64,000 nt of DNA. Source: Candidatus Omnitrophota bacterium. Lineage in GTDB: Bacteria; Omnitrophota; Omnitrophia; Omnitrophales; Aquincolibacteriaceae. The DNA is taken from the NCBI GenBank assembly GCA_035368605.1, contig DAOSLF010000008.1, positions 1,964 to 65,963 on the forward strand, in the 5' to 3' direction. Below, one piece after another: positions 6,956-60,810 of the stretch (positions are counted from its first letter, which is position 1; every line of letters starts with the position of its first letter). The notes below the pieces were generated by a model, which saw only the letters and a list, made by a program, of their open reading frames with translations, did no database searches and was not told the origin of the DNA. Made by a program: the position numbers and the translations under genes.

Positions 6956-7038
6956 TGGGGAGTAGTGGATTCGAACCACTGAAGGCATAAGCCAACAGAT
7001 TTACAGTCTGTCCCCTTTGGCCGCTCGGGCAACTCCCC
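6956..7038 (-). tRNA. tRNA-Tyr (anticodon GTA), type II with long variable arm
   Basis: Reverse complement GGGGAGTTGCCCGAGCGGCCAAAGGGGACAGACTGTAAATCTGTTGGCTTATGCCTTCAGTGGTTCGAATCCACTACTCCCCA. 7-bp acceptor stem. Anticodon stem ACAGA/TCTGT with loop CTGTAAA gives GUA. T-loop GGTTCGAATCC. CCA not encoded. Confidence 0.85.
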
Positions 7039-7060
7039 ATGGAGATCTGGCGAATGAATC

Positions 7061-7133
7061 AGCTGGCGGAGGGATTTGAACCCCCGACCCGCTGTTTACA
7101 AAACAGCTGCTCTACCGACTGAGCTACGCCAGC
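7061..7133 (-). tRNA. tRNA-Thr (anticodon TGT)
   Basis: Reverse complement GCTGGCGTAGCTCAGTCGGTAGAGCAGCTGTTTTGTAAACAGCGGGTCGGGGGTTCAAATCCCTCCGCCAGCT. Acceptor GCTGGCG/CGCCAGC. D-arm GCTCAGTCGGTAGAGC. Anticodon stem GCTGT/ACAGC with loop TTTGTAA gives UGU. Confidence 0.85.
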
Positions 7134-9274: not shown

Positions 9275-11626
9275 TCAAATGTCGTCATGATGCGACAGGA
9301 CCTTGTGCTCATGGAAGGAGTCCCCTCCCCGGAGCTTCCTTTTAAAAAGCCGCTGCGGCCCAAAAGGCTTCAGCATCACGAGAAAGATCGGGAGCACGAG
9401 AAGCGAGCAAAGCAGCGCGAGGAAGATCGTGAGGCTCGTCAACACGCCGAAGTGGACGGTGATGCGGAAACTCGCGCACACGCTCGCCGCGAACCCGAGA
9501 CACAGGATCAGGGTCGAGAGCACCATCGACTGCCCCACGTTACGGTAGGTGTGATGCAGAGACTGAAGGTAATGGAACCGGTGGTGGAACTCCTTTTCGA
9601 AGCGATAGATGAACTGGATCGACGCATCGACCACAAGACCGAGGACGATACTCGCGATCATCGCGGTCGCGGTCGAAAGCTCGATCCCCGTGTAGCCCAT
9701 GAACCCGTAGACCGCGAGAATCGGGAAGAGGTTCGGGATTGCGGCCAGGAGTCCGAGCTTCACGGAGCGGAAGATCAGGGTGATCACGATCAGGATGGAA
9801 AGGAACGCGAAGATGAAACTCCTCGCCTGCTCATGGAGCAGGCTTTTCGAGATCTTCCCGAGAAGCACGACGTTCCCGGTGAGCTTGTATTCAAAAAAAT
9901 CGCTCAGACGCTCGTCCAGATAGGCCCGGATCCTGTCTTCGAGCGCCGCGCCCTTCGTCGTGCCGATCGCGCGCATGCGCGCCTCGATGCGGACCTCCCT
10001 GAAATCCGGCGAGATCATCTTCCAAAGCTCGGGGTCCCCTGATTTCGCCATCCCTTTGAAATAGAGTTTCAACAGCCCGGGGTTATCCGGGATCTCGTAC
10101 TTGTCATCATCGTCCGCCCGGGCCTCGTTGATCTTCTTGACGAGGGTCGTGATGGAGTTCACCTTGGCGATCCCATCTTCGCTCTCCATATAGGTTTTGA
10201 ACTCATCGAGCTTCCTCAGGGTCTTCGGATCGACCATGAGCTCGCCGTCCTTCCGCCGGAGAACGAACCCGAGAGAATAAACACCGGTCAGGTTATCATC
10301 GATGAATTTCGTCGCAATCGCGAGCGGAAGCTCCGGCTTCATCTGTTTGACGATATTCGTGTCAACCTCGATCCTCTTCACACCCTGGACGGAGAAGAAA
10401 ATGATGACCGCGGTCACGAGCAGGATCAGCCATTGCCAGCGGCTCTCGAGGTTCTCGATGAATTTGATCAGGACCCGGTTAAAGAAATGGCTTTCGTCGA
10501 AGGCGTCGACCTTCTTGGGGCGGTACGGGAGGATCGGCAACAAAAGGATCGTCAGGATGATCTCCACAAAATACGCGTAGAAGGTGCCGAGCGCGGCATA
10601 GAGTCCGAAGCTCTGGATCGCGGGGATACGGTTCAGGGCCAGCGACGCGAACCCGAGGATCGCCGTGAAATGCGTCAGAAGACATGGAAGCCCCAGCTGC
10701 TGGATCGTGAGCAGCACGGTTTCCCTGAGGCTCGCGTGATGCGGCCGGATTTCAAAAAACAGATTGATGAGGTAGGTCGCGTTCAGCACGGCGACAATCA
10801 TGATCACGGGAGCAAGGAGGGAGGTCATAAGATTCAGCTCCTGCCCGAGCAACGCGATCGTTCCGAGCGTCCAGATCAGCGTCGTGAAAACAATCGACAT
10901 GGAAAGGAACATGCAGGCGAAACTTCGGTAAATAAAAAAGGTCACCAGCACGAGAATGACGGTGATGATCGGAATGAAGACCATCTGGTCCCGGTGGATC
11001 AGATGGATAAACTCATATTGCTCGACCGGCGCGCCCGCCATATAGAACTTGAGGCCGGGCCGCTCAAAGTCATCCAGATACTCTCTCAATTGCTTAATGA
11101 ACACACCGTTCGCCGCGGAATCCTCGTCAGTCTTGAGATAGACGACAATATTCGCGATCTTGCCGTCACGGGAAACGATGTTGCTCAGGTAAAGCTCGTT
11201 CGAGAGGATGCTCTTCCGCATCTCGGCGACGCTCTTGTCGCCTTCCTCGACCTCTTTGAACGCCAGTTCCGTCTTGACGCCGAGGAATTTATGACGGATG
11301 TCCTGGGCATTCGCGAGACTGATCACGCGCTCCACGCGGTCGAAGCTCTGGATGCCTTCCGTGACCCGTTTCAGGATGCCGAAATTGACATCCGTGAAAA
11401 GGTCGTCGGTCGACATCGCGACCGCGATCATCTGATCGGAGCCGTACTTTTCGCGGTATTCCTGGTAGTACTTGTAATCGGCGGACTTCTTGATGAAAAG
11501 AGGCTCGATGGAGGGATCGACCTTGAGACGCAGGACCGCATTCCCCATGATGAAAAGGCTTGCGACCATGGCAAGCAGCATGGGCCAGCGGTAGCGGTCA
11601 ATGAATTCAGCTAATTTGCGGAACAT
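9275..11626 (-). CDS. RND-superfamily exporter (COG1033/MMPL-like, two 6-TM bundles with two large periplasmic loops)
   Basis: 783 aa. N-terminal LAEFIDRYRWPMLLAMVASLFIMGNAVLRLKVDPSIEPLF followed by a periplasmic loop. Two TM clusters of about 5 helices each. Architecture matches MMPL/HpnN-type transporters. Confidence 0.8.
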   Translation of the reverse strand: MFRKLAEFIDRYRWPMLLAMVASLFIMGNAVLRLKVDPSIEPLFIKKSADYKYYQEYREKYGSDQMIAVAMSTDDLFTDVNFGILKRVTEGIQSFDRVERVISLANAQDIRHKFLGVKTELAFKEVEEGDKSVAEMRKSILSNELYLSNIVSRDGKIANIVVYLKTDEDSAANGVFIKQLREYLDDFERPGLKFYMAGAPVEQYEFIHLIHRDQMVFIPIITVILVLVTFFIYRSFACMFLSMSIVFTTLIWTLGTIALLGQELNLMTSLLAPVIMIVAVLNATYLINLFFEIRPHHASLRETVLLTIQQLGLPCLLTHFTAILGFASLALNRIPAIQSFGLYAALGTFYAYFVEIILTILLLPILPYRPKKVDAFDESHFFNRVLIKFIENLESRWQWLILLVTAVIIFFSVQGVKRIEVDTNIVKQMKPELPLAIATKFIDDNLTGVYSLGFVLRRKDGELMVDPKTLRKLDEFKTYMESEDGIAKVNSITTLVKKINEARADDDDKYEIPDNPGLLKLYFKGMAKSGDPELWKMISPDFREVRIEARMRAIGTTKGAALEDRIRAYLDERLSDFFEYKLTGNVVLLGKISKSLLHEQARSFIFAFLSILIVITLIFRSVKLGLLAAIPNLFPILAVYGFMGYTGIELSTATAMIASIVLGLVVDASIQFIYRFEKEFHHRFHYLQSLHHTYRNVGQSMVLSTLILCLGFAASVCASFRITVHFGVLTSLTIFLALLCSLLVLPIFLVMLKPFGPQRLFKRKLRGGDSFHEHKVLSHHDDI

Positions 11627-12499: not shown

Positions 12500-13090
12500 T
12501 CAGGGAACCTTCTGCCGAAGATTCGCACCCTGGGCTCCGGGCCCCGGGCTCCAGGCTACATCCCCAAGTTTGGGATACTTGCCATCTTTGTCGGACAGGA
12601 TGAACTCCCGGTCCAGCACCGGCCACGGAATCGCAAGCTGCGGGTCATTCCAGATTATCCCGCGCTCATGGGCCGGTGAGTAATAATCGGAACATTTATA
12701 GAAAAACTCCGTCCCCTCCTCCAGCACGCAGAAACCGTGCGCGAAACCTTTCGGGATGTAGAACATCTTCTTGTTCTCCGCGGAGAGGATGAGCCCGAAA
12801 TGCTTGCCGAAGGTTCCGGAGCCCTCGCGGAGGTCCACCGCAACATCGAAAACCGAACCCCGCGTCACCCGAAGCAGTTTGGCCTGCGCCTTCGGGGCGA
12901 TCTGGAAATGAAGTCCGCGCAGGACCCCCTTCCGGGATGAGCTGTAATTATCCTGCACGAACTCGTCCGTGATCCCGTTCTGCGCGAACAGGTCCCGCCG
13001 GTAGCTTTCGAAGAAATAACCGCGCGCGTCATCGAACACCTTCGGTTCGATAATAATCAAGCCGTCAATCTCTGTGCGAATAAAGTTCAT
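12500..13090 (-). CDS. rfbC: dTDP-4-dehydrorhamnose 3,5-epimerase
   Basis: MNFIRTEIDGLIIIEPKVFDDARGYFFESY...GLHFQ...KGFAHGFCVLEE is the RmlC cupin signature. Start moved to the internal Met at 13090, which has an AAGGAG RBS. Confidence 0.85.
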   Translation of the reverse strand: MNFIRTEIDGLIIIEPKVFDDARGYFFESYRRDLFAQNGITDEFVQDNYSSSRKGVLRGLHFQIAPKAQAKLLRVTRGSVFDVAVDLREGSGTFGKHFGLILSAENKKMFYIPKGFAHGFCVLEEGTEFFYKCSDYYSPAHERGIIWNDPQLAIPWPVLDREFILSDKDGKYPKLGDVAWSPGPGAQGANLRQKVP

Positions 13091-13179
13091 TGGCTCCTTA
13101 ACGGGACTCGTTCCCCGGGACGAAACGTTCATTTACATCTTTGAAATCCACGGACCCCAAGGCACCCCCGCTTTTGTTT

Positions 13180-13536
13180 TTATATGGTCAGGCGTTCGAT
13201 CTCTTCCGCGACACGGATGAGATCGAATGGTTTCTGAAGGAAGGAGTCGCGCCCCAGCGATTCGGCTTCATCCATCAGGTTCTGGTCCACGTAGCCCGTC
13301 ACCATGACCGTTTTGGTTTTGGGGCATTTCTCTTTCGACGCCTTCAGGACTTCGATCCCTGAGGCGTCCGGAAGTTTCACATCGATGAAAACGATTTCAG
13401 GCTGCATCTCTTCGAGGATCCGGATTCCCTGCTTCGCCGTATCGGCAGTCCGGACCACATACCCCTCTTCCTCGAGAAACCCTTTCACTTCCTCGACGAT
13501 CCCCGCTTCATCATCCACGATCAGAATCTTCTTCAT
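13180..13536 (-). CDS. single-domain response regulator (CheY-like receiver)
   Basis: MKKILIVDDE...FIDVKLPDASG...VMVTGY...KPF canonical receiver residues. 118 aa. Confidence 0.85.
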   Translation of the reverse strand: MKKILIVDDEAGIVEEVKGFLEEEGYVVRTADTAKQGIRILEEMQPEIVFIDVKLPDASGIEVLKASKEKCPKTKTVMVTGYVDQNLMDEAESLGRDSFLQKPFDLIRVAEEIERLTI

Positions 13537-13581
13537 GGCCTGTATGATACTCCATCCCCGCGCTCCGGTCCAAGGGCCGCC

Positions 13582-15933
13582 TCACGGCCGGTTCGGCCGA
13601 TTCCGCGCTCCGGGATCTTGCCGCGGGAACCGGCTTGACTTCGGAGCCTCTTCGTAAACGGGGAGCGTCAGCGTGAACGTCGTCCCTTCACCAACCTTTG
13701 ATTTCACGGCGATGGTTCCCCCGTGCAGTTCAATGATGTATTTGCACATGTAAAGGCCGAGGCCGGAACCCTTGCCGGACGGTTTTGTCGTGAACCCGTA
13801 ATTGAAGATCTTTTTCCGGACTTCCTCCGTCATGCCGCCACCGTTGTCCGTGAAATAGATCGCGACCATCTTGGGGTTCTGCGCGTCGGGTTCCGCACGC
13901 ACCGCGATCTTCCGGTGACGTTTGCCCGCCATGGCGTGGTAGGCGTTGATGAACATATTAAGAAAAACCTCCTGAAGCCGTTCGAGGTCCCCCCGGATGA
14001 GCGGGATACTGCCCGGCACGTTGAAATCCACCTCCGTCCCGGACAGGTTATCCAGATAGGTCTGGAACTGGACAAGCGGCAGGGTCTCTTCGAGTATCAG
14101 CTTGAGCGAGAGCGGCTCGAACTTGCCCTTTTCCGATTTCTTGAGAAGTCCCGTCAGCGTATTCACCACCGCCTTGATACGCTCGACGTTCTTTTCCATC
14201 TTGTCGAAAACATCAGCGATCTCGGCCACCTTCACATCGGGATCCTTCCTGTATTTCAGGATCGCCCGCGACACATTCATCGAAAGGATCGTAAGAGGGT
14301 TGTTGACCTCGTGCCCGACGGACGCCGCGAGGCGCCCCAGGGTCGCCATCTTCTGTTCGTGGATCAGCTGCGCCTGCGCGTCCTGGAGCTGTTTGTTCGC
14401 GCCTTCCGCTTCATCCAACGCCCGCTCAAGCAGCCCGCGCGAACGTTCGAGCTGCTCGTTGATCTGTTCGAGATCGAGCGAGCGGCGTTTGGTCTCGTCA
14501 TAGAGTCTCGCGTTCTCGATCGCGATGGCGGATTCCTGGGCAAGCGTGCAAAGGAGGTTCAGGTCTTCGGTCGAATAGTATTCCCCCGATTTCTTTTCGC
14601 CGAGCAAGAGAATGTTTTTCAGCTCCCGCCCCAGGAAGCTCGGTACGCAGCAGGTCGTCTGAAGGTACATCATGCGATCGCGGATCGCCTCGTAATCCCA
14701 AACGGATCCCTCCGTTTTCTTCCGCCGGTACTTTACGTCTTCGATCTTTTCCCGGATGCGTTCAATATCGACCGATTCTTTGTGGTGCGCAATGTAGTCG
14801 ATGAGGGGGTCGTCCTCATTCAGAACCAGCGAGTAGAACTTCTTGTCGTAACCGCGCTGGTAGGCAAGGTTGAAATCATTGCTTTTCGGATCGCGGATCA
14901 GCACCGCGGCATTGCGAACACGCATCTTCATCGTCACGAAGTGGATGACGAGACCCAGCAAGCGTTCAAGCGACTCGATATTTGACATCCCGCGCGATGC
15001 GTCTTTCAGGAGCTTGTGATAATCATGTTTTTTCCGGAACAGGAACCTGTCCGTAAGGTTAGCCAGCAGCTTCCGCGCCGGATCGAATCCGAGCACCACA
15101 AGGAACATGACCGCGAACCGGGCCCAATAGATCTGGATTCCGGAATACGGATCGAGAAGCTTCTGAATGCCGAAGGTACCGAGAAGCAGGACCAGGGACA
15201 TGAAGCCCCAAAGCCCCGCGAAGATCACCGTATTCCTCAGAAGTTTTTCGATATCCAGGAAACGATACCGGGAAATCGAGCACATCGCAACGAAGCTGAA
15301 GAGCGCCACGCCGTAGGGGCCGTAAGGAAAAGGGAAAAACCCGAGGCCGTAGACAGGCAGGAAACAACCGATCCCGCCCAGATATCCGAGCAGGTTCGCG
15401 CCCGTGAAGAACAGGGCCTGTTTTTTCCGGGCTCCTTCAAAGCTCAGCGCGGCCCTGATCAAAATGGTATGGGTGTAGAAGACCGTCACGCAAGAGAAAC
15501 CGAACCAGGCCGTGTATAACTTCCCGGCATCCGGAAAAAAAGGGAACCCGAACTTGGACGAGACCCCCGAAAAAAAGAGTTGGGGAAAGAAAAGAATGAC
15601 CGCCAGAAAAAAAAGGGTGCTGATGTCAAAGGCGCGAACCACCGGCGTCGTCTCTTTCCGACCGACATAAACGCACGTGAAATGCAGGAAAAAGACGGGG
15701 ATCAGGGCGGCGCCGGCATGGAAAAGCTGGCTAAAAAAAAGCGAGGCCGCCGGATCCCGGACGGTCGTCGCCAGCAGAACGAAGATCGCCCAGAAAACGA
15801 TGGCGCTCCCGTAGTGGACGAACTTGCGAATGATGACCTGATTGCTGCCGCGGTAAAAAACGATCCCCACGAGGGTCAGATTGACTAGGGCGGTAAAGAA
15901 AGTGGCAAACTGGTAATGATTAGCGGGGCTCAT
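13582..15933 (-). CDS. sensor histidine kinase: N-terminal polytopic membrane domain + GAF + HisKA + HATPase_c
   Basis: About 8-10 N-terminal TM helices. GAF-like middle region. H-box HEVNNPLTIL. N/G1/G2 boxes (NAYHAM, DNGGGM, GSGLGL). 783 aa. Confidence 0.85.
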   Translation of the reverse strand: MSPANHYQFATFFTALVNLTLVGIVFYRGSNQVIIRKFVHYGSAIVFWAIFVLLATTVRDPAASLFFSQLFHAGAALIPVFFLHFTCVYVGRKETTPVVRAFDISTLFFLAVILFFPQLFFSGVSSKFGFPFFPDAGKLYTAWFGFSCVTVFYTHTILIRAALSFEGARKKQALFFTGANLLGYLGGIGCFLPVYGLGFFPFPYGPYGVALFSFVAMCSISRYRFLDIEKLLRNTVIFAGLWGFMSLVLLLGTFGIQKLLDPYSGIQIYWARFAVMFLVVLGFDPARKLLANLTDRFLFRKKHDYHKLLKDASRGMSNIESLERLLGLVIHFVTMKMRVRNAAVLIRDPKSNDFNLAYQRGYDKKFYSLVLNEDDPLIDYIAHHKESVDIERIREKIEDVKYRRKKTEGSVWDYEAIRDRMMYLQTTCCVPSFLGRELKNILLLGEKKSGEYYSTEDLNLLCTLAQESAIAIENARLYDETKRRSLDLEQINEQLERSRGLLERALDEAEGANKQLQDAQAQLIHEQKMATLGRLAASVGHEVNNPLTILSMNVSRAILKYRKDPDVKVAEIADVFDKMEKNVERIKAVVNTLTGLLKKSEKGKFEPLSLKLILEETLPLVQFQTYLDNLSGTEVDFNVPGSIPLIRGDLERLQEVFLNMFINAYHAMAGKRHRKIAVRAEPDAQNPKMVAIYFTDNGGGMTEEVRKKIFNYGFTTKPSGKGSGLGLYMCKYIIELHGGTIAVKSKVGEGTTFTLTLPVYEEAPKSSRFPRQDPGARNRPNRP

Positions 15934-16615
15934 GAGAAAAAAGACGCCTTAAAGCTTTCCAGGGAAACAAGGCTCTGGTCTCGTTCATGCACACAACATA
16001 AGATTCCCCTACCTTGCGGACATGGTTCCTTTCTTCTCCCGGGAGCCACGTGTACTGAAGCGGGATGTACAGGCAAAGAGCGAAAAGGAATCCCAGGATC
16101 GAGTTAAGAATAAGCGGAATGCTCAGGACCTCCAGGAAAATAGCCGCGCAAATCGGATGATGGATGTACCTGCAGGGCCCAAGGCGGATCACGCCCTCTT
16201 TGCTCGCTTTCCCGGCGCCGATCGCATGGACGGCCCACTGGCTTCCGAGCGCCTTCATCCCCCACCACCGCAAGCGGAAGGAAACGGCATAAAGGATCAC
16301 TCCGATCACCGTAATAGCCAGGGAAAGCGCGGGTCGGAAGATGAACCCCTCCGCACAGCTCAGAAAACAAAGAACAATGTAGGCCGGCGTTGTCGCGATA
16401 AGGGTCCAGTCGCCGTGCAACTCGCACGGACGCCGTTCCTTGGGCGTGTAAAACGTTTCCCACACCCTCTCAAATGAATGGAGGACAATGAAGACGAGAA
16501 AAAAAAGACGGAAAGTTCCTTTTTCGGAGAGGGCAAAGAAAATGCCGGCAAAAAACGGGACCCCCACCGCGCCCAAAAATGCCGGGGCCTGGATCCAGGA
16601 TGTTTTTTTTGACAT
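15920..16615 (-). CDS. ICMT/PEMT-family integral membrane methyltransferase (isoprenylcysteine carboxyl methyltransferase-like)
   Basis: Polytopic protein with C-terminal GVIRLGPCRYIHHPICAAIFLEVL matching the RHPxY...EE SAM-binding motif of ICMT/phospholipid methyltransferases. 231 aa. Overlaps the histidine kinase start by 14 bp. Confidence 0.6.
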   Translation of the reverse strand: MSKKTSWIQAPAFLGAVGVPFFAGIFFALSEKGTFRLFFLVFIVLHSFERVWETFYTPKERRPCELHGDWTLIATTPAYIVLCFLSCAEGFIFRPALSLAITVIGVILYAVSFRLRWWGMKALGSQWAVHAIGAGKASKEGVIRLGPCRYIHHPICAAIFLEVLSIPLILNSILGFLFALCLYIPLQYTWLPGEERNHVRKVGESYVVCMNETRALFPWKALRRLFSHEPR

Positions 16616-16619
16616 GATT

Positions 16620-17066
16620 TCAATCCCTCCGATGGTAGTCGGGGATCACGGCTAATATTTCCCCAGGGACCGGGGCGAACCCATTACGCAGGGAATCCAC
16701 GAATACGACCGCATACCCGGTCCTGCAAAAGAGATCGCCGCTGTTTTTCCGGTAGAACGAAACGATCATATCGAAACTGACGCGACCGATCTTGCCGACC
16801 GTCAACCGGGCCTCGATCGAATCGCCAAAACTCGCCCCCGGGAACATCTCGAGATTAATCTTGCTTGCCATCATCTTGATCGGGCGGGACGACACCTCCG
16901 GAAAACTATCGATCGTTGACTGGAAAAAAGCCTCCCGGACATAATTGGTCCACTCGTCAACGACGATCAGATCCACGGTTTTTTGGGCAAGGGAGATCGC
17001 TTCTTCCCCGCTTCGCGCGACCGGCACACGGCGCCTTGTTTTTTCAGCAACTGCCCGACCGAACAT
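16620..17066 (-). CDS. hotdog-fold (4HBT/YbgC-like) thioesterase; 5' region appears frameshifted relative to an upstream receiver-like start (see findings)
   Basis: C-terminal SFGDSIEARLTVGKIGRVSFDMIVSFYRKNSGDLFCRTGYAVVFVD matches 4HBT thioesterases. N-terminal VARSGEEAISLAQKTVDLIVVD looks like a receiver domain. A strong RBS+ATG at 17109 opens a receiver-like start (MPKTILLVDD) in another frame. Confidence 0.5.
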   Translation of the reverse strand: MFGRAVAEKTRRRVPVARSGEEAISLAQKTVDLIVVDEWTNYVREAFFQSTIDSFPEVSSRPIKMMASKINLEMFPGASFGDSIEARLTVGKIGRVSFDMIVSFYRKNSGDLFCRTGYAVVFVDSLRNGFAPVPGEILAVIPDYHRRD

Positions 17067-17216
17067 GTCACAAGGTCTTTGTCATCGACAAGGAGGATCG
17101 TTTTGGGCATCGGGGTACCCTCCTCTTCACTTTTGTATCGGTCTTTTGCGATTTAACTGTAGTAGGAGGGCCCGGTTAGGCGGGGCAAAGACGCTATCGT
17201 GACGGGAGCAAAAAGG

Positions 17217-19403
17217 TCACGATCGCGGGAATCGGATCACAAACACAGAACCCTTCCCGGGTTCAGACTGGGCCGTAATCGAAGCCCCGTGACGTTTGAG
17301 GATTCCGAAGCTCACGGAAAGACCGAGACCGGTCCCTCCCCCCACATCTTTAGTCGTAAAGAAGGGGTCAAAGATCTTCTTAAGGTTCTCCTTTGAGATA
17401 CCGATGCCGTTATCGGTCACGCGAAGCTCAACCGCCTCCCCCGCCTCTTGTATGCCAACCACGATCTTTCCCGTACGCTTCGCGGCCAGGATAGCATCCT
17501 TCGCATTCACGAGGAGATTCGTAAAAACCTGTTCCAGCTCGCCGGAGATCCCTTTTACGGGAGGCGTGTCCACAAGCTCGGTCTCGATCGTGATATTCTC
17601 CTGCTGGAACTGGAACTTGAGGAGGGCAACCGTGCTTTTCACAACCTCCCGAAGGTCCGTGTCCTTCAGCGGGGATTCTTCCGCGGTCTTCCGGGCGTAT
17701 TTCATGAGCTTCTGCACGATCCCCTGACAGCGCTTCGCCCCCTCCTCGATCAGCGAGATCGATTCCATATCGTCTTCCCCCGCACTCATGCGGAGGATCT
17801 GGGCATTGGTGAGCACCGCCGTAAGCGGATTATTGATCTCATGCGCCACGCCGCCCGCGAGTGTGCCGAGCGTGGCAAGCTTCTCGGCCTGCACAAGCTG
17901 TTCCTGCATCTTCGCGAGTTCACGCGTCCGCTGATCCACCCTCTCTTCCAGGACCTGGTTCCAAAGCTGAAGTTCATCGCTCAGTTTCCGGATATCCTCA
18001 AACCGCACCGAATTCGAAAGGGCAATCGTGACGGGCACCTTGAGACGGTTCAGGAAGTGAATCTCGTTAAATCCGTAGCGGCGCAGGTTGCTTTTTCGGC
18101 CGAGATTCGCAAAGCCGATAAGCCGCCCTCCCAGAACAAACGGTAAAATGACCTGAGACTGTGTTTCCGCAAAAAACGACTCCAGCTCGGATTTAAATCC
18201 TCCCACCGCCGGATCGCTCACAACAAGCGTTCCGACCACGGCCCCGTCCGTCGCGGTCAGCCACTCCAGGAGCGGGCTATGCCCCACGACCGGGCGAAGG
18301 TTCCGTATTCCCTTTGCGATCGCGGGAAGGAATCTCTTGGTCGAATCGTCATAAAGATAAACGGAAAGGCGGCGGACAAAAAGCTCGTGGCGCAGCAGGC
18401 GCGCGAAGCTTTGGAGGAGGTCCCGGAGATTCTTCAGATGCACGAGCTCGGCCGAAAAGCGCTCGAGGACGGCCATCAGGTTCGTATGCTGCCGTTGAAA
18501 AAGTTTCCCCAAACGCGGCTGGACCGCCCGATAGTAGAAATAGAACACAAAGAGCATCGCGAGAAAATAAAGGCTCGCGGCCAACGGACTGAGGTCCGCC
18601 ATCATCGGCTGTATCGTATAAATGATACCGGCGAACGGAAGCACCGCGACTGCGCTCGTCGTAACCCACATCACCGTCATGTGAATCGCGGTCTCGATAT
18701 CCATGAGACGGTAGCGGATCACGCAGTACCCGATGATCGTCGTAAAAAGGAACATGGGAAGGAACGCAACGGGGAACGCACGGATGCCGTAATTGGGAAG
18801 ATATTCGATGGAACCAAGAAAGGCGATCGCATAGGCAATGAACATCAGCTTTGTGTTCTTCTTGAGAAGAGGTGCTTCGGCCTCGCGATGGATGCGCAAA
18901 AAATTCTTGAAGGAAAGGATCATGAGGGCGTAGAACCACACGATGAAAACGGCCTCAAGCGGTCCCGCCTTCGGGAAAAAGCCGGTCGGATACGGATACA
19001 TCCCTTCCACGATCCCGGGCGTCAGGCCGCAGATAAGGTAGAATCCGAGCGCGCAGAGGTAGTGGAAGACGATCCATTTCACCTTGCGCCTGAAAAGGCT
19101 GGCGTTCCAGGTCACGATGAAAAAGTACACGGCAGGCGTGATGAAGATGATGCCGAACCAGGTATACCATCGCGAGAAAACGGTCGCGACCGCCTCATCC
19201 GTCATCGAACACGCGATCCCGACGCCCGTGAGCCAGATGCCGGCCGTGACATTCGTCACCGTGTAGGCGATGTGCGTCACGGTCTTTTTCCCCTGAAAAA
19301 GCACAAAGAGCCCTTCGAGCGTGATCAGGACGCCAACGATGAAGTGAGGGAGGGCGTAGTTATTCCAGTAGAAAAGCTGCGGATCAAAAATAGAGTTCAT
19401 CAT
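17217..19403 (-). CDS. sensor histidine kinase: polytopic membrane domain + GAF + HisKA + HATPase_c (paralog of 13582..15933)
   Basis: About 10 TM helices at the N-terminus. GAF region. H-box [11 protein letters not shown]. HATPase G-boxes ([14 protein letters not shown]). 728 aa. Confidence 0.85.
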
Positions 19404-22046
19404 GATGGATGGCCCGGTTCATGACATCATGAAGGACGTTCATGTACTTTTCAACCTTTTCCCGAGGTCCCTTCATGCTCACCACGCCGACCCGACCTCC
19501 GTTCGCGGCGGGAAGGGAAAAATTGCTGAACGCGATAAATCCGTCCGTATGGACATCGCTCGCGGGAGCGACAAAAAAATCCGCTTTTTTTATGATCGTG
19601 ATCCCGAGCGAGCCGACGAATTCCTGAAGAGGCCGCATCAGGAATTTCGACGTGGCTTCGTAGAGAACCGCCGGCGCCGGCGTATAGGCTTCAAGGAGAG
19701 CGTAGCTTTCGCTCCTTCGCTTCCGCGTGGCGAAAAGCTGGCGGTTGAATTCCTGCTGAAACGCGAAGAAGCCGCGGTCGGGACGGTGTTTATCGAAATA
19801 AATACCGGGCCGTATGAAGATGAACCCGAGCGTCCGGCCGCGATCTCCTGCGGCTCGCAGATCGACGGGGATCGCGAACTTGATATCCTCGAACTCGCGG
19901 TATTGCGCCAACTTCCAGATCAATAGCGCCGCGGATGAAATCACCTGCTTGGCACGGCGGCCAAAGCGCTTGTTAAGCTCATTCCTCACCCGGAGAAACG
20001 GCCGGAAATCAAGGAACTGGTACGCGTGGAAGACGCCGCCGTCGCCCGAGGCCGTCGAACAGCGGTCCGGCACCATTCCCTCGCGATATCCTGAATCCGG
20101 AAACACAAACCCGCTGCGGACACCCCATTGTTTCTTAAGTTCGTTCAGGACCTCCTGGGAAGGGACGCCGTCCACCGGGACGTGACTGAACTGGAACCAA
20201 AGATCAGCCGAGCAAAGATCCGGTGTCATCCGGCATACGATGTTCAGGATTCCCGGTCCGGGATGCTTGGCGTCAAGGAACTGCGGCACCTGAAAACGGC
20301 TGGACGCTCCGATGGCAAGGGCCTGGGGAAGGATCTCAAAACGGACAAAAGCGGCGCTCAATATCCGGCCGCTGAAATCCCTGGCCCGCTCCTTCCATTG
20401 CACCGGAATGGCAGCGGACTTCCGGGAAAACCATTTCTTCCATTCCCGCGCGAGGAGGATCGGCCTTTGCTTGTCCGGCTTATCACCGGTCGCATTGTAG
20501 GCCTGGATGATCCCGTCAAGGAGGAGCGTTTTGAGATCGGCCGGCATCTCTTCAAACCCCTCACCCCCCGTTCCCGGATCGATCAGGGGTTCCAGACGAA
20601 CCAGTTTTCCGGATCCGTCAAAGTCGGCTTTTACGATATCCAGCAGGCCCTTTGGTTCCGCCTTCGCGCAAAACCGCCTCCACGCGAGCCGGTAGTGAAA
20701 CATCGGCTGTGACCGGAGGAACTTCGCGAGTCTTTGGATACAGTGCCGCTTGGCCGCCGCGGGGGACCGATCCCGATGATCCGGTGCGTCCGACCAGAAG
20801 TCGAGATCAAAAACGGCCAACGCGAACTTGGCCTGTTCGGTCCTCAGGTAGGATTCCGTCACCCTGCGCCAGCCGTCCAGTCCTTTTCCCGCCCCGGCTT
20901 TACGAAGCAAACCAAGAATCCTGACGATGGCAAAAAAGAACAGGGTTCCGAAATTCAGCCGGTCCGTGTAGCGATCCATCCGAAATTTACGCATGATGTA
21001 CGGGATGATCCGGGGACCGTGCGCCCGGATGCGAAAGATTCCCCGGGGTTCCACATACCCGTTCTTCCGGTACCAAGCGACCGCTTTCGCGAGCGTTTTG
21101 CGCAGCGGGGTCGCGGGATAACCGAGCTCCCGGACCGCTTTGGAACCGTCATAGGCGCCGGTCTTCAGGCAGAACCTGATGCCCTCGGTCGGCATGAGCG
21201 GTTTTTTCCGGAACGCATAATGCGAAAGGAACTCATCGATATACGTGAAGCAAAAAAGAGCCCAGTAAGGAATCCGGATTCTCGGTGCCCGGACCCCGGA
21301 AACTTGCTCCAGCGCGCGAAAGATCTCTTTAAGGGTCGGATGATCCGGGTTCGCGAGAATGTAACGCTCGCCGATCCTCCCCTGCTTTGCGGCGGCGATA
21401 TGGGCCTGGGCAACGTCATCGGCATCCGCCACGCTCCACCGGGTGTCAAAATACCCCGGATAGCTTTGATTCAGGAATTTGACGATCACATCGCCCGTCG
21501 GGGTGGGCTTGTGATCGCGCTCACCGATCACGATCGCGGGATTCAGGATCACCGCGGGAAGCCCTTTCGCGCAATACTTCAAAACTTCCTGTTCGGCCAA
21601 AAACTTGGAGCGGGCATAATGGCTTGCGCCGCGCTCCCTGAAACCGGCGCTTTCATCCGCGGGTTGCCCGTCGCTTCGCGCGTTGATCGTCGCGATCGTA
21701 CTGGTATGAACAAACTTCCGGACCCCGTACTTCAGAGAGGCCGACAGCATATGGACCGTGCCATCCACGTTGATCCGGTACATGGCTTTGGGGTTTTTGA
21801 TCCAGAAAGGATAAAAGGAGTAAAGGGAGGCGAGATTAAAAACGATCGAACATCCCTGAACGGCCGTTTCAACGGCCTGAAGGCTCGTAACATTGCCATT
21901 CACCACTTCAACATCAAGATGTTCGAGCAGGAGACTGTCCCGACGCTGGCGCACCAGGACCCGGACTTGATATCCGGCGGCGAGCAGATGACGGACAAGG
22001 GTCGAACCGATAAAACCCGTGCCGCCCGTCACCAGAACTTTCATGA
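19384..22046 (-). CDS. bifunctional fusion: N-terminal NAD(P)-dependent epimerase/dehydratase-type (CCR/3beta-HSD-like) reductase + C-terminal HxxxDG acyltransferase (WS/DGAT- or condensation-like)
   Basis: MKVLVTGGTGFIGSTLVRHLLAAGYQVRVLVR Rossmann motif with a YxxxK-type SDR core (YARSK). C-terminal about 430 aa carries FQFSHVPVDGVPS, compared with the HHxxxDG catalytic motif of wax-ester synthase/condensation domains. Start set at the internal Met at 22046; the 37-codon N-terminal extension was judged spurious. Confidence 0.55.
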
Positions 22047-22162
22047 TCTCAAACACCCCCGGAACAGACCGGGGGGCAACTCCGGGATGCCCCCGATCCG
22101 GATTCGCGTGACCGCTATCGTTTCCACGGGACCAAACCCCGGTTGGGAAACGCATCCCGCCA

Positions 22163-23740
22163 CTACGACTTCTCCGCCATTTTACCGATCGCGATGATCT
22201 CCTGATCGATCAGCTGCCGATGCCCCCAGAAAAAGGGCGCCAGGCGGAACCCGTGCTTGTTCGCAAGGCGGAGAATCTCATCCATCTTCTCTTTCGTGAT
22301 ATGTCCCTTCCCCCACGAATAATTCTCATACCGGCCTTCGAGCGCCAGGACCATGGCTTCGGAAAAACAACCGTAGAGCACCCTGCGAGACGGCAGTCCG
22401 ATATCGAATCCCGTATTGAACTCCACGGGAAGTTCGCAAATGCCGCCCGCGAAGATCAGGATGTCGTGACGGTCCGTTTCCGCATAAGCGATGTTCTTGG
22501 GATACCCGACGTCGCACACGATCGCGCCCGGTTTGAAGCTCGAGATCTCCACGATGGATTGCGGCGCGCTTGCGGCGGCGATCACGATATCCGCGTCCTT
22601 CACCGCATCGTTGTTGTCGTGGCTGCCGCGAAACTTCGCACGGCGAACGGCCTTGATGGCCCTCGCCATCTTCTTCAGATTATGCGGACTACGGCTCGTG
22701 ACGGTCACTTCCCTGGTCATCGAGGCAAGCACCCGCGCGCACGCACTGCCAATATCGCCCGCTCCGCCAATGACCGTGACCTTCGCCCTGGCAAGGTCCA
22801 CTCCCATGAGCCCCGCGGCCTTCACCACCCCTTCGACCGCCAGGGCGGCCGTAAGCGTATTGCCGGTCGTCACCGGAATCCGGACCTGTTTGAGGAATGA
22901 CTTCCCGAAGCGTTCTCCGGCGATCGAGGTAAAACCTCCCAGGGCCACGATCCCCAGACCATGACGTTCCGCCACCTTGCAGGAATCGACCACCTTCCGG
23001 ATCACGTTCTCCATATCGAGGGCCAGCATTTCGGGGATGATATTACAGACGATGAAAGCCCCGCGAGTCACCGCACCGCTTTCCGCCCGGAACTCCTTCA
23101 CATCGTACGAAACGTAGGAGGGCATGAGATCGAAGATCTTCGCGAGAAAGCCCTGGGACGGTAATTTAAAATCCGGATTGAAGGACCTGAGATAACTCAC
23201 GAGATGCTGGAAATTGTAGGGATGACCGATCACGCCGAATCCCGATACCGCGCGAAGCGGCCGGGTGCCCGCCTGACCGTAACGGCATTCAATGAGCGCA
23301 TTCTCGAAGGACCGGAGCAGGGTTTCGAAGAACCCGCGGATTTTCTCGGTGACCATTCCCCCGACGATCTGGTCCATAACCGGGATTCCGAGACGGATCG
23401 CCGCTTCCACCGTGATCTCCGTGCTGTCCGATGGCCCTTCCGCCAGGATCCAGCGTCCCTCGAAGCTCTCCAGATCACCTTCCAGTGCCCTGAACCGCAC
23501 GGTAAAACTCCGGTACTCGAAAAAAGCCTCTTCCCGCCATTGGATCGGCAATCCGTCTATCTGGACCTTCCAGGAGGTAACCGAGCGTTTCCGGTCACGG
23601 TCGACGATATGACACTCCTTGATGGCAGGTAACAGGGACGGGAAGTCCTCCACCCGCGTCAGCAGACGAAGAACCTGCCAGCGCTTCGCGGGCAGAACCC
23701 GGCTGATCTTGATAAAAGAACTGCTTTCTGAACCTGACAT
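22163..23740 (-). CDS. fusion of SRPBCC (polyketide-cyclase/START-like lipid-binding) domain with long-chain acyl-ACP reductase (AAR)-like domain
   Basis: N-terminal 150 aa has the SRPBCC pattern. The rest aligns motif-for-motif with cyanobacterial acyl-ACP reductase as recalled from memory: FGVIGH, ALGGFTSI, TTGNT, GGAGDIGSACARVL, DVGYPKNI, CFSEAMVLALEGRYENYSWGKGHITKEKMDEILRLANKHGF. Confidence 0.65.
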   Translation of the reverse strand: MSGSESSSFIKISRVLPAKRWQVLRLLTRVEDFPSLLPAIKECHIVDRDRKRSVTSWKVQIDGLPIQWREEAFFEYRSFTVRFRALEGDLESFEGRWILAEGPSDSTEITVEAAIRLGIPVMDQIVGGMVTEKIRGFFETLLRSFENALIECRYGQAGTRPLRAVSGFGVIGHPYNFQHLVSYLRSFNPDFKLPSQGFLAKIFDLMPSYVSYDVKEFRAESGAVTRGAFIVCNIIPEMLALDMENVIRKVVDSCKVAERHGLGIVALGGFTSIAGERFGKSFLKQVRIPVTTGNTLTAALAVEGVVKAAGLMGVDLARAKVTVIGGAGDIGSACARVLASMTREVTVTSRSPHNLKKMARAIKAVRRAKFRGSHDNNDAVKDADIVIAAASAPQSIVEISSFKPGAIVCDVGYPKNIAYAETDRHDILIFAGGICELPVEFNTGFDIGLPSRRVLYGCFSEAMVLALEGRYENYSWGKGHITKEKMDEILRLANKHGFRLAPFFWGHRQLIDQEIIAIGKMAEKS

Positions 23741-23856: not shown

Positions 23857-23893
23857 AAAAGCAGCCCCGCCGGCGAAGGCGGGGCTGCTTGTC
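23857..23893 (-). terminator. rho-independent terminator downstream of the CBM-like gene
   Basis: Hairpin GCAGCCCCGCC-ggcgaa-GGCGGGGCTGC with a T-run on the minus strand (ttttttattgg). Confidence 0.55.
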
Positions 23894-23915: not shown

Positions 23916-24521
23916 TTACTGTCTTTCGAGAGAGACCTGATCGATGAAGATGGTCCCTGTCTTGGGGTTCGAGTTGATGTCATCGAACACCACGACGAAC
24001 TCGTTCAGCGAATTCCAGTTCTCGATGCGGCGGAACTTCTCGAAGGGAATGCAGACCTTCTGCCACTGATCGGTGATATCGCTCACGATGTACGGAGATG
24101 CTTTTCCGGACATATCCTTGAGCTCAAGCTTCACGCGCTTCGTGTAGCCGGTCTTCGCATCACCCTTGATAAAGAAACAAAGGGTGTTGTACGGGGTCGC
24201 ATCCTCGCCATTCATTTTCATCCAGAACCCGTTATACGCGGGATTCGGAGAATCAACGTCATAATCCAGACGGATCGAATAGCCCGCCGGATCACCCTTC
24301 GCATCATCCGTCGCGAAGGACATCACCGTGCCCTGGGTATCATCGTTCGGATCCTTGTCCCACCCGCCGAAATCACCGCCGATATTGTTCGGCTTGTCAC
24401 CGGTATCAAAATCAGCGATCACAAGCTCTTCAGCCGCGAACGCCGTCGGGAGAGAAAATCCAAATCCCAGCACCATCAAACAAACTAGGGGCAAAGCAAC
24501 AGCAAGTTTAAACATCTTCAT
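23916..24521 (-). CDS. secreted protein with carbohydrate-binding-module-like beta-sandwich domain (CBM4/9/11-like)
   Basis: Signal peptide MKMFKLAVALPLVCLMVLGFGFSLPTAFA. Trp/Asp-rich beta-sandwich pattern (IADFDTGD...GGWDKD...FFIKGDAK...TIFIDQVSL). AT-rich promoter region upstream. 201 aa. Confidence 0.45.
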   Translation of the reverse strand: MKMFKLAVALPLVCLMVLGFGFSLPTAFAAEELVIADFDTGDKPNNIGGDFGGWDKDPNDDTQGTVMSFATDDAKGDPAGYSIRLDYDVDSPNPAYNGFWMKMNGEDATPYNTLCFFIKGDAKTGYTKRVKLELKDMSGKASPYIVSDITDQWQKVCIPFEKFRRIENWNSLNEFVVVFDDINSNPKTGTIFIDQVSLERQ

Positions 24522-25705: not shown

Positions 25706-28700
25706 TTATGTGTTTGTGCGGCGTTTATTGAACAAAAAAAAGCTTCCATCCCGGATGGCCGACACCCCCGCCTGGAGCAGATGCGTTATATCATCCACGC
25801 AAAGGACAAAGGCCGGAAGAACGAAAAGGGTCAAAATGGTTGAACTGATCAACCCACCAATAACCGTAATGGCAAGCGGGGCCCAAAGATCGCTCGCCTG
25901 GCCAAAACTCATTGCCATCGGGAGAAATCCGAGAACGGTCGAGGAAGTGGTCATAAAGATCGGCCGCAAACGGTCCATGCCCGCCATCGTCCACTTTTCC
26001 TCTTCGGGCATTGAGGTATCCAGATGCTGGTAGCGATCGACCAAAAGGATCGCCGCGTTCACGACATAACCCGCGAGCAGGATGATCCCGATAAAAACCT
26101 GCGTGCTCAAGGGGCGCGGCTGAGGCAGCCAGGTGATCCACGAGTCAGGTATCCCAAGCAGCTTAAGCGGCCACGTGATCAGCAGCGACCACCGCAGGGC
26201 AAGCCAGACCCCAATCGTTGCCATGGGAACCGTCGCCATGATCAGGGCCGGGAAGCGATAACTCTGGAAAAGGCACGCCATGACCATGAAGATCAGAAAA
26301 ACGGTCACCACGACGGCCAATCCGAGCTCGGATTTGCTCTGCATGAGCTCTTCAAATCCGCCTCCGAATCTCCAGTAGTAGTCGTCCGGAAGTTTTACAT
26401 CCTGGATGGCCTTTTTGACGTCCTTGGCGATGAGCTCGATCGGACGTTTTACGTCCCCCTTCACGAAGACATACCGGTGCTTGTCCTTCCGGTCAATGGT
26501 CTGAGGCCCGGTCGAAGGATAGAAATTCGCGATCTCGCTGATCGGGATCTGCGTGTTCTCCCTCGTTTCGACATAAATCTGTCCCAGATCCTCGAGCTTC
26601 TGCCGGTAGATCGCCTGGAGACGCGTGATCGTTTCGATCTCCTCCCCTTTCGAAAGCTCATGGAACTTCGTCGGCCGCATCCCGCGCACGAGCGCGTGCA
26701 TGCTGTCCGCGACGGATTTCACGGAAAGCCCGTACATCGCGGCCTTCCCCTTGTCCACGACAAGCGAATATTCGGGGCGTTTACGGAGGTCGGTCATCAC
26801 GAGGTTTGACAATCCGTCGACCTTGGACATGCGGTTGGCAAACTCCTTGGCGAGCCTTTCGAGTTCATCGCCGTCCTGCCCGTAGATATTGATGACCAGC
26901 TTCTTCGATTCGGAAGAACCCGCGCCCTCGTCCACGATCAGGCTGTAATCCGGATGGATCTCCTTGATCGCGGCATTCCCCTGTTCGTCGATCAGCTTCA
27001 TGATCTCATCCTTTGAGAATAGCCTCTTCCGCTGGGGTTTGAGACGGACAAAGAGCCGCAGGTCATCTTTCGAAACGGTCGTGGAGAAAAGCGTCACGTC
27101 GGGTATCTTGGAGAGCAGTTCCTCGATTTTCTGCATGGCTTCGTCGTTCGATTCAAGCCGCGCTCCCGCGAGCGGGAATGTGATAACCGCGAACTCGTTT
27201 TCCTCGAAGGAAGACGGCCAGTCGATCGGCGTCTTGGCAATCCCGAAAATCCCGAGGCAACAGGCGACCACCATAATCCCCACCACAAGCCAGCGGGCGC
27301 GGAAGACCCCGTGGAGCGCTCCTTGATAAAGATCTTTCATCTTATGGATGAAGCGATCCGAAAGAGTCTGGGTACGGGCATCGAGCTCGGCCACAGCGAA
27401 CTGCTTTATCAGCATCGGGATCAGCATCAAGGCCGAGAAAAAAGAGGCGATCAGCGCCACGCAGATTGTGAACGCAAAACCTCCGTAGGTCAGCTGAATG
27501 GTCTTGTCGATAAAAACGATCGGCAGAAACACGACCAGCGTTGTCGTCATGGACGCCAAAAGCGGGAGCCAGACCTCTTCGCTTCCGTCACGGATCGCAT
27601 GCGCCGCGGAGGCCCCGCCTTCCCTTTTGGAAAATATGTTCTCCATAATGACCACCGCGGTATCCACCAGGAGACCGACCGCCAGTGAAAGACCGGAAAG
27701 CGTCATCACGTTGATACTGATGCCCGCCGCCGCCATACAGATGAATGTGGCCATGAGAGAGGTAGGGATCACAACAAGGATGATCGCGGAAAGACGCCAG
27801 CGCATGATGTAAAAATAGATCACCCCCATGGTCAGGACCAACCCAATGAGCAGTGCCAGTTTGACATCATCGATCGCCCGTTTGATCGCATCCGCCCGGT
27901 CGTTGACGAAGACGATTTTGATCGAATCCTTGTGATCGGCCTCGAAAGCGTCCAGAACCCGCGTCAGGTCGTCGGCCACATCCAGCGTGTTCGCGAGACT
28001 CGCCTTTTTGACGTAGACCGTAACGTTCTGTTCCAGGTTGAGGCGGGCCTGGTCCGTCGCCTCGAGGTAGGAATCCTTGACCGTCGCGATCTCTTTCAGG
28101 GAAATGATCGATCCCTGTCGCGTCGCTTTCACGCCGAGCTCCCCGATCTCGTCCACGGTCAGGAACGACCCCATGCTCCGGATCGCGTACTCGTATTTTC
28201 CCGTCTCGACGTTCCCGGCGAGGAGATTGATGTTGCTCTGACCGAGTACGTCCATGACGCGCTCCACCGAAATGTTATAGGCCACCAGTTTGTCCCGGTC
28301 GAGTTCGACAAGGATCTTCCGTTCGCGTCCTCCGTAGACCTCGACGCTCGCGACGCCGTCCACGCGGCTCAGGATCGGCTTCAGCTTGATATCCACCATC
28401 TCACGGATCTGTTCGGGCGTCATGGAATCCGAGGTGACTGCGAACACGAGAATGGCCGCCTGCGCGTCGTCATAGTTGGCAATGACCGGCTTTTCGATCT
28501 CCTTCGGGAGAAGTGGCCGCACCCGCGCGAACTTCTCGCGGATTTCGAGCGCCGCGAAGTTCATGTTGGTTCCCGGTTCAAACTCCATCGTCACGCGGGA
28601 TTCGGCCTCGCGGGAACTCGAATAGAGGTTCTTCATTTTACTGACGGTCCCGACGGCTTCCTCGATGGGCTTCGTGATCATTTTCTCAACGTCCTGGGAA

Positions 28701-28867: not shown

Positions 28868-28870
28868 GCG

Positions 28871-60794: not shown

Positions 60795-60810
60795 CGTCCC
60801 GTCCCCGCCT

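Follow-up and report, generated by a model that had tools for sequence, protein, structure and literature searches.

The closest described counterparts of the locus studied here are the cyanobacterial AAR of the AAR-ADO alkane pathway (6jzq/6jzu; TIGR04058), the bacterial wax-ester route built on Acr1/FAR and WS/DGAT enzymes (Marinobacter 6chj), PigE of prodigiosin MAP biosynthesis (NF053554; 4ppm), HpnA (TIGR03466, 'hopanoid-associated sugar epimerase') and, on the regulatory side, DesK-DesR of Bacillus subtilis, a membrane-fluidity two-component system that controls the lipid desaturase Des and whose regulator DesR binds DNA. The locus lies at positions 13180-23740 on the minus strand of a 64,000-nucleotide stretch of DNA (hereafter the window) from a Candidatus Omnitrophota bacterium (GCA_035368605.1, contig DAOSLF010000008.1). 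Omnitrophota are widespread and almost entirely uncultured, and we know of no lipid data for them. We read the locus as a modular one that would make a fatty-aldehyde-derived lipid and would be wired to a two-component phosphorelay, a proposal for which our belief and our doubt are about equal. Its parts come from known superfamilies, namely AAR, extended SDR, CAT-type acyltransferases, ICMT/PEMT and two-component systems. What is new is the SRPBCC-AAR fusion, an acyltransferase family for which no model exists, the fixed coupling to a specific seven-transmembrane (7TM)-GAF kinase, and a swappable cassette of receiver plus enzymes; a literature search found no paper on the locus or on these four features. 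An earlier reading made from the sequence alone (the sequence-only reading) had counted eight minus-strand genes here. The cluster is there, but the open reading frame (ORF) list of the window holds seven intact-looking ORFs in it and an eighth only if a 47-codon fragment is counted. The AAR-like fusion, the reductase-acyltransferase fusion, the two paralogous polytopic kinases and the CheY receiver that this reading had named are supported by profile, alignment and structure.

The first gene of the cluster, g1 (22163-23740, minus strand; 525 amino acids, aa; GGAGG located 6 nucleotides (nt) before the ATG), is a fusion of a SRPBCC/START-like and an AAR-family domain. Its N-terminus, at about residues 10-150, matches Polyketide_cyc (SRPBCC/START-like, E 4e-12) and also PDB entry 2d4r, and residues 168-499 align end to end with residues 2-335 of S. 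elongatus AAR (6jzq, E 5e-42). The motif of the catalytic cysteine, Cys458 in g1 and Cys294 in S. elongatus AAR, reads YGCFSEAM in g1 and FACFAEAM in AAR, and the NADPH motif reads GGAGDIGSA and GATGDIGSA respectively, with GxxGDIGS kept. The two catalytic domains are of the same family, and for each protein the predicted product, set free from an acyl thioester, is a fatty aldehyde. In g1 the AAR domain would convert a long-chain acyl thioester (acyl-ACP or acyl-CoA) to the aldehyde via an acyl-Cys intermediate using NADPH, and the START-like domain would probably hold the hydrophobic chain for hand-over. Unlike cyanobacterial AAR, however, g1 carries the N-terminal SRPBCC/START-like domain, belongs to an anaerobic and non-photosynthetic phylum, and has as partners either an SDR-acyltransferase or an aminotransferase with a GNAT protein, plus a histidine kinase, instead of ADO; a ferritin-like/ADO (aldehyde-deformylating oxygenase) gene was found neither in the window cluster nor in any of the related loci described below. 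Since its score is well under the TIGR04058 equivalog cut-off, g1 by profile comparison is a divergent member of the AAR family and not an orthologue. The AAR region of g1 is also about as close to the N-terminal region of PigE (169 bits, against 175 bits for AAR), of which the first ~350 residues align with it.

The second gene, g2 (19384-22044, minus strand; 886 aa from the conserved start MKVLVTGG), consists of an SDR domain (21040-22044), a hydrophobic helix (residues 362-380) and a 551-aa acyltransferase domain (19387-21039). The longest ORF reaches 22155; however, full-length homologues (~860-912 residues) all begin at MKVLVTGG and the database copy of g2 has 886 aa, because of which the true start is most likely at 22044 and the gap between g1 and g2 would be 118 nt, and 7 nt only with the longest ORF. 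The SDR is of the extended HpnA/DFR/CCR type, with TIGR03466 (HpnA) and 3wj7 as the best family match. The nearest solved relative is 3wj7 (E 1.5e-65), followed by cinnamoyl-CoA and dihydroflavonol reductases. Of 41 family members, at least 95% keep the SDR motifs TGGTGFIGS (TGxxGxxG), HTST and YARSK (YxxxK), and the predicted role of the domain is to reduce the fatty aldehyde to a primary fatty alcohol. Such a role would agree with 3wj7 if, as is probable, that protein is Gluconobacter Gox2253, which is reported to reduce C7-C10 aldehydes with NADPH.

Since HpnA and the sterol demethylase SdmB are among the matches of this SDR (346.8 and 187 bits), a modification of hopanoid or steroid-like triterpenoids was considered, in which the SDR would act at the 3-position, the acyltransferase would esterify the polycyclic alcohol and a MMPL protein would export the product. 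An MMPL transporter with a sterol-sensing domain does lie 1.5 kb downstream, and squalene-hopene cyclase is present at low frequency in Omnitrophota (PMC12324291). Yet the HpnA score is below the family cut-off of 367.65, there is no hopanoid gene context (no cyclase, squalene-synthase, SHC, Hpn or other isoprenoid gene in the 64-kb window), and unlike HpnA the g2 SDR is fused to an acyltransferase. The invariant partner is moreover an acyl-thioester reductase and not an isoprenoid enzyme, and the slot of g2 can instead hold an aminotransferase and a GNAT protein (see below). We regard the triterpenoid explanation as very improbable. In annotation, g2 should not be named a sugar epimerase or a 3-beta-HSD.

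The C-terminal domain of g2 has no Pfam match at E <= 10 and none in NCBIfam, and nothing usable was found in PDB by phmmer or profile hmmsearch; nor does it have sequence-profile membership in the WES_acyltransf, Carn_acyltransf, Condensation or Transferase families. As these sequence searches failed, the domain was placed by structure prediction and Foldseek. The AlphaFold model, built on 41 sequences, has a pLDDT of 91, and a Foldseek search with it reached E values of about 1e-9 for choline/carnitine acyltransferases, BAHD proteins, NRPS C domains and WS/DGAT 6chj. There were 251 PDB chains at E <= 1e-3, and among the matches listed (50) all belong to the CoA-dependent acyltransferase superfamily. 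Judged by its model, the domain is a two-lobe, pseudo-dimeric acyltransferase fold of the CAT superfamily. The HxxxDG motif reads SHVPVDG in g2; His286, Asp290 and Gly291 (domain numbering) do not vary among 41 close relatives, and among 162 distant relatives their conservation is still 90% or more. The acyltransferase would join the alcohol to a second acyl thioester to give a wax-ester-like lipid, and the hydrophobic helix may serve as its membrane tether. This is the same predicted logic as that of the bacterial wax-ester route (thioester to aldehyde to alcohol to O-acyl ester), and WS/DGAT 6chj shares the two-lobe CAT-type fold and the HxxxDG motif. However, the g2 domain has no sequence-level relation to the WS/DGAT, condensation or carnitine-acyltransferase families, its catalytic His is in the middle of the protein as opposed to WS/DGAT, and its 550 aa are about the size of a carnitine/choline acyltransferase. 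Also in contrast to the wax-ester route, the acyltransferase is fused to the aldehyde-reducing SDR and the locus is embedded in a two-component system.

An exhaustive phmmer search placed at least 264 clusters at 50% identity in this acyltransferase family, which has no sequence relative in Pfam, NCBIfam or PDB. Some of the relatives are fused to a g2-type SDR, many are stand-alone, and about twenty have a ~300-residue N-terminal extension, in which a lipase/esterase-type alpha/beta hydrolase was found for 7 of the 9 extended relatives scanned. No kinase or AAR context accompanies the stand-alone or N-terminally extended relatives in the loci examined. Stand-alone or hydrolase-fused acyltransferases outside the Omnitrophota-type context occur in L028-L042 (proteins P0229-P0266), for example L036 and L038 from human-gut metagenomes.

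To compare gene order we used about 25 distinct related loci (given L numbers here) from protein look-ups, a genome scan and a metagenome scan, which were annotated by phmmer with window and cassette proteins as queries, plus Pfam. The alignment of the first genome scan was swamped by an unspecific SDR pattern and gave four loci only, and an alignment of the acyltransferase domain alone gave 29 metagenome loci. Orthologues of HK1, the kinase that follows g2 in the window, were recognized by their transmembrane (TM) domain, which scores 213-535 bits in orthologues against 21-96 bits in paralogous kinases. An HK1 orthologue directly follows the acyltransferase in all 18 distinct loci with a visible downstream side, and this order is kept across 38-70% protein identity. 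Even in L011 (38% identity), where SDR and acyltransferase are separate ORFs, HK1 is still next. The junction of the two genes varies from a 47-nt overlap to a 7-nt gap in the loci with listed gene calls, and is a 20-nt overlap in the window with the HK1 start over the g2 stop; HK1 would be translationally coupled to g2. SRPBCC-AAR is directly upstream of SDR-acyltransferase in 15 of 17 loci, the exceptions being L001 and L018. Further, HK2 orthologues end the cassette in most loci, a terminal receiver orthologue follows HK2 in nearly all, and rmlC follows that receiver in L003, L007, L008, L020, L047 and L050. The minus strand holds almost every gene of the 64-kb window, so the co-orientation of the cluster genes is little informative; the conservation of gene order, unlike co-orientation, is beyond chance. 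So far the locus has been seen only in Omnitrophota-labelled and unlabelled metagenome contigs, and it is near-universal in the sampled lineages. The co-occurrence across genomes that the sequence-only reading had proposed to examine is therefore positive for the core across Omnitrophota. The eight genes that it counted do not form one fixed unit, as the hotdog and ICMT genes belong to an interchangeable cassette and the SDR-acyltransferase is absent or replaced in some loci.

These replacements carry the strongest support for the aldehyde chemistry. In L049 (11587-14074) the slot after SRPBCC-AAR does not hold the SDR-acyltransferase but a class-III aminotransferase together with a GNAT acyltransferase. 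Reduction with O-acylation and transamination with N-acylation are two standard routes for capturing an aldehyde, and because the same slot holds either a reductase with an O-acyltransferase or an aminotransferase with an N-acyltransferase, aldehyde production by the preceding protein is the reading to which the comparison points. The predicted path in L049 would be from aldehyde to amine to amide, parallel to that from aldehyde to alcohol to ester in the window. PigE combines an AAR-like region and an aminotransferase in one protein, and L049 has the same pairing as separate genes; the window differs from PigE in that the partner is the SDR-acyltransferase and no pyrrole-pathway genes are present. 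In L047 and L050 the slot is empty and SRPBCC-AAR leads straight to HK1.

The interval between HK1 and HK2 almost always contains a receiver and lipid-type enzymes, and behaves as an interchangeable cassette. In other genomes the genes found there, among them KS, ACP, ECH, hotdog, GDSL lipase, alpha/beta hydrolase, PlsC, HAD, SDR, ICMT and Methyltransf_20, are nearly all for acyl- or lipid-type enzymes, which upholds the earlier suggestion that the activities of the cluster act on acyl or lipid substrates. A receiver and a methyltransferase make up the cassette in L011, L020, L021, L022, L049 and L050, and in L034 the receiver is accompanied by a PilZ-methyltransferase fusion. Receiver, KS, ACP and hotdog are present in L006; Methyltransf_20, receiver, KS, ACP, ECH and GDSL lipase in L014; a REC-KS fusion, SDR and ICMT in L017; and Methyltransf_20, alpha/beta hydrolase and receiver in L008. 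The receiver is joined by PlsC and HAD in L007, by a second AAR-like protein in L026 and by two hotdogs and ICMT in L047 and L048, and the L003 group has nothing in the interval. Two of the fusions link a signalling domain directly to an enzyme, namely REC-KS (559 aa, L017:10005-11684) and PilZ-Methyltransf_20 (466 aa, L034:3894-5291).

The transcription signals of the window were considered along with the gene boundaries. A strong intrinsic terminator (23859-23890, minus strand; 13-bp stem with 10 GC pairs, then TTTTATT) lies between the stop of a 201-aa gene (23916) and the start of g1 (23740), and would mark the end of the upstream unit and the 5' boundary of the transcription unit of the cluster. 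The terminator scan found no convincing intrinsic terminator within the cluster and a weak one (12483-12469) directly after rmlC (dTDP-4-dehydrorhamnose 3,5-epimerase; 12500-13132, minus strand; TIGR01221 at 250 bits). Because of the strong terminator before g1, the lack of a convincing one inside and the weak one after rmlC, the pattern fits a single transcription unit from g1 to the terminal receiver and perhaps to rmlC, which is possibly its last gene. The sigma-70 promoter scan was at background (8 found against 6.0 ± 2.5 expected) and no promoter is claimed, and Rfam gave no regulatory RNA in or before the cluster, its only hits being two tRNAs elsewhere in the window. Overlaps or gaps of a few base pairs, which the sequence-only reading had given for all junctions, hold for g2/HK1, for the hotdog-like ORF and ICMT (4-nt gap) and for ICMT/HK2 (14-nt overlap, with the HK2 start over the ICMT stop). 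The remaining gaps are 45-150 nt, including 106-150 nt from HK1 to the next ORF and 45 nt from HK2 to the receiver. The whole cluster recurs at 99.95-100% DNA identity in four independent assemblies from different samples, near-identical contigs come from JGI 3300009720, 3300028570 and 3300036969, and the best database matches are 100% identical proteins in Candidatus Omnitrophota metagenome-assembled genomes.

Could the enzymes and the two-component genes merely be neighbours in a co-directional array, with the kinases regulating something else? Nearly all of the window is on the minus strand, several loci have further 7TM kinases scattered about them, and in L048 (6888-13820) a unit of kinase, receiver, hotdog, hotdog, ICMT, kinase and receiver stands alone beside NADH-dehydrogenase genes, with no AAR or SDR-acyltransferase nearby. 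On the other hand, it is the specific HK1 orthologue, recognized by its TM domain, that follows the enzymes in every locus over the whole identity range, stop and start codons usually overlap at the enzyme-HK1 junction, some cassette enzymes are in direct fusion with receiver or PilZ domains, and no convincing terminator separates the genes. Mere neighbourhood thus appears quite improbable to us.

A different product is conceivable from the cassettes with KS and ACP, with or without ECH, hotdog or GDSL (L006, L014 and L017). In such a compact PKS/FAS-like pathway, a dedicated KS/ACP/ECH/thioesterase cassette would build a special acyl chain for a specialised small molecule or signal, the AAR-like domain would release it reductively, the ester or amide made by tailoring would be secreted, and the kinases would sense or control the product. 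The equal likeness of the AAR domain to the reductive N-terminal region of PigE suits this, as do the aminotransferase of L049, which recalls amine-forming routes of secondary metabolism, and the transporters seen in close relatives (two RND pumps with membrane-fusion and outer-membrane proteins upstream and the MMPL transporter downstream). But these transporters are syntenic only in close relatives and are absent in L005, L006, L011 and L049, the strong terminator parts the pumps of the window from the cluster, many loci are without any KS or ACP, and the near-universal presence in the sampled lineages looks like that of a housekeeping and not of an accessory function. We consider such a small-molecule pathway rather unlikely.

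HK1 (17217-19403, minus strand; 728 aa) has about seven hydrophobic TM helices, a GAF-like middle region, HisKA with the H-box VAHEINNPL, and HATPase_c. Its paralogue HK2 (13582-15933, minus strand; 783 aa) has about seven hydrophobic helices, HisKA_7TM, a weak GAF, HisKA with the H-box VGHEVNNPL, and HATPase_c. The two align collinearly from end to end (25% identity, E 1e-48). Both window kinases have a weak GAF region, which is clearer in orthologues; those of HK1 carry HisKA_7TM and GAF. The terminal receiver g7 (13180-13536, minus strand; 118 aa) is a CheY-like single-domain protein (Response_reg, E 7e-25) in which the DD acidic pocket, D52, T80 and K102 are present and no output domain follows. 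The methyltransferase between the kinases (15920-16615, minus strand; 231 aa) is polytopic, with at least four TM segments, and the earlier ICMT/PEMT call stands as both Pfam cut-offs are passed (PEMT 28.2 bits against 25; ICMT 27.1 bits against 24). It misses the NCBIfam isoprenylcysteine-methyltransferase equivalog (38 against 160 bits). The ICMT that immediately precedes HK2 in L047 shares 67% identity with it, and the ICMT in the corresponding place in L017 matches it with 121 bits.

A cue from the membrane or from lipids is plausible for 7TM-GAF kinases such as these, in which no extracytoplasmic sensor domain is obvious, and we suppose that both HK1 and HK2 would read it. DesK is likewise a polytopic kinase with no obvious extracytoplasmic sensor domain and is genetically tied to a lipid-modifying enzyme, so that DesK-DesR may serve as a working model of how HK1 and HK2 might sense the membrane or lipids. 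Unlike DesK, however, HK1 and HK2 have a 7TM region plus GAF and come as two paralogues, and unlike DesK-DesR the receivers here are single-domain or enzyme-fused and there is no desaturase. Hybrid kinases aside, all receivers in the loci are of these two kinds, and neither in the window nor in any related locus examined do the kinases come with a response regulator that binds DNA. Among DNA-binding regulators in general, the exceptions are HTH proteins, which adjoin a toxin gene inserted in L011 and precede g1 in L005, L006 and L049; the insertion in L011 (13866-15079) consists of an AbiEii toxin gene and a HTH gene between HK1 and the cassette receiver. Because DNA-binding outputs are consistently absent and REC or PilZ domains are fused to enzymes, the arrangement suggests that the kinases regulate enzyme activity directly. 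HK1 and HK2 would phosphorylate receivers without a DNA-binding domain, and control would fall on the enzymes or on partner proteins and not on transcription.

Several points weigh against the fatty-aldehyde reading. Each of its chemical steps is predicted from homology at the family level. g1 scores 175.5 bits on TIGR04058, far under the equivalog cut-off of 449.7, and the g2 SDR is, in profile comparison, closest to HpnA-type proteins that are themselves without an assigned function. The Foldseek TM-scores of the acyltransferase are only 0.45-0.5, its top structural matches are carnitine and choline acyltransferases, and the modelled fold alone would not single out an acyl acceptor. As L047 and L050 lack the SDR-acyltransferase, the conserved core can do without it. 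These genomes are very rich in 7TM kinases, of which L006 has three more upstream. Finally, PlsC acyltransferases located directly upstream of SRPBCC-AAR in L007, L011, L015, L022 and L024 could suggest glycerolipids in place of wax esters. In that case the pathway would belong to membrane glycerolipids (ether lipids or another backbone): the aldehyde or alcohol from g1 and the SDR would be incorporated into a lipid with a glycerol or dihydroxyacetone phosphate (DHAP) backbone, on which the acyltransferase would act together with PlsC, and the kinases would adjust membrane composition. The PlsC and HAD phosphatase cassette of L007 agrees with this, the hydrophobic helix of g2 could anchor the protein to the membrane, and eukaryotes and myxobacteria make ether lipids with such a set of reductase, SDR and acyltransferase. 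But no alkyl-DHAP-synthase-like or PlsA/Ger-like gene is found in the window or in any related locus, the window cluster itself has no PlsC, and the aminotransferase and GNAT of L049 suit the derivatisation of a free aldehyde better than backbone chemistry. The glycerolipid explanation is accordingly given a low likelihood.

The cassette of the window was found to be damaged. Its first ORF after HK1 is the fragment of 47 codons (16967-17110, minus strand), which has a GAGGAGG ribosome-binding site and is the start of a receiver, MPKTILLVDDKDLV..., that loses its frame between about 17044 and 17024. The following 148-aa ORF (16620-17066, minus strand) is a chimera of the out-of-frame rest of the receiver (to DLIVVD) and a 4HBT_2 hotdog lacking its first ~33 residues. 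On the 4HBT_2 profile it scores 22.9 bits, under the cut-off of 25.5, and covers profile positions 59-120 only, that is, the C-terminal half. Intact Omnitrophota thioesterase homologues of ~144 aa are 50-58% identical to it, covering only its last ~107 residues, and their N-terminal KHTDxxGxVHPYN is absent from the ORF. In the frame-corrected product, residues 1-52 stop exactly at the acceptor Asp and share 51% identity with the cassette receiver of L047 (its residues 1-53) and 49% with the REC domain of the REC-KS protein from L017; residues 53-159 share 52% identity with the second L047 hotdog (its residues 34-140). An assembly error behind the frameshift is ruled out, as three independent assemblies give the identical sequence for the frameshifted chimera. 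We considered programmed -1 frameshifting, or slippage of transcription at the A6 run, and set it aside, for the corrected product would still be half a receiver and a truncated hotdog; for the same reason a relic of a deletion is the simpler reading, and the hotdog ORF is probably non-functional. The intact arrangement in L047 and L048 is receiver, hotdog, hotdog, ICMT, HK2 and receiver. From this arrangement, and from the mapping of the junction to the L047 proteins, it appears that an ancestral receiver-hotdog-hotdog-ICMT cassette lost the part from mid-receiver to early second hotdog in the lineage of the window, with the remnant also put out of frame. The cassette receiver is destroyed in this genome, and the ICMT methyltransferase is the only enzyme left in the cassette. 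If the cassette was regulated via its receiver, that link would be gone here. The thioesterase named in the sequence-only reading is thus a fossil, and the 'thioesterase' should be marked in the annotation as a pseudogene remnant.

Taking the loci together, a broader scheme can be drawn, which we put forward tentatively and doubt more than we believe. It would be a phylum-specific system of lipid tailoring, in which SRPBCC-AAR supplies an aldehyde, swappable genes turn it into alcohol esters, via the SDR fused to the new acyltransferase family, or into amine amides, via the aminotransferase and GNAT, and two 7TM-GAF kinases sense the lipid or membrane and switch the cassettes post-translationally via receivers that stand alone or are fused to an enzyme, as in REC-KS. 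The sequence-only reading had spoken of lipid remodelling; the gene content suggests instead the synthesis of a fatty-aldehyde-derived lipid. If true, this would give a concrete lipid chemistry in an anaerobe (fatty alcohols, wax-type esters or fatty amides), and also a possible example of a two-component system that acts on the enzymes of lipid biosynthesis themselves instead of on transcription. In the sample examined, the locus is among the most conserved non-housekeeping gene arrangements of Omnitrophota. Members of the acyltransferase family fused to a lipase are found elsewhere, including in gut metagenomes.

The genes around the cluster are mostly on the same strand. The 201-aa gene upstream (23916-24521, minus strand) encodes a secreted protein, CBM_11-like in relatives, and is upstream of SRPBCC-AAR even in L005, L006 and L049. 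Further upstream, at 25706-35719 (minus strand), there is a complete RND efflux set, made up of an outer-membrane factor, a membrane-fusion protein and a tandem pair of RND pumps. Next come a 199-aa membrane protein and a DUF503 gene. The efflux set is syntenic with the cluster in close relatives only. Downstream of rmlC are the MMPL/HAE3 transporter with the sterol-sensing domain (9275-11626, minus strand) and a DUF11/CARDB surface protein (7657-9129, minus strand), both syntenic in close relatives. We considered extending the functional unit to the RND pumps, the MMPL transporter and the proteins of 199 and 201 aa, but rejected this, as their synteny is mainly in close relatives and the terminator parts the upstream genes from g1. 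Elsewhere in the window are a REC-PAS-GGDEF-EAL protein (4286-6448, minus strand) and the two tRNA genes, which are adjacent (6956-7133, minus strand). T2SS-F, secretin and PilM genes are located at 54748-62334. Two tandem 1169-aa paralogues (43726-47235 and 47236-50745, minus strand) have no Pfam match, and their pilin-like N-terminal ~55 residues are identical while the remainder is only 35% identical. A third ORF of 1163 aa (36317-39808, minus strand), also with no Pfam match, adjoins a pseudopilin with an N_methyl motif (35830-36327).

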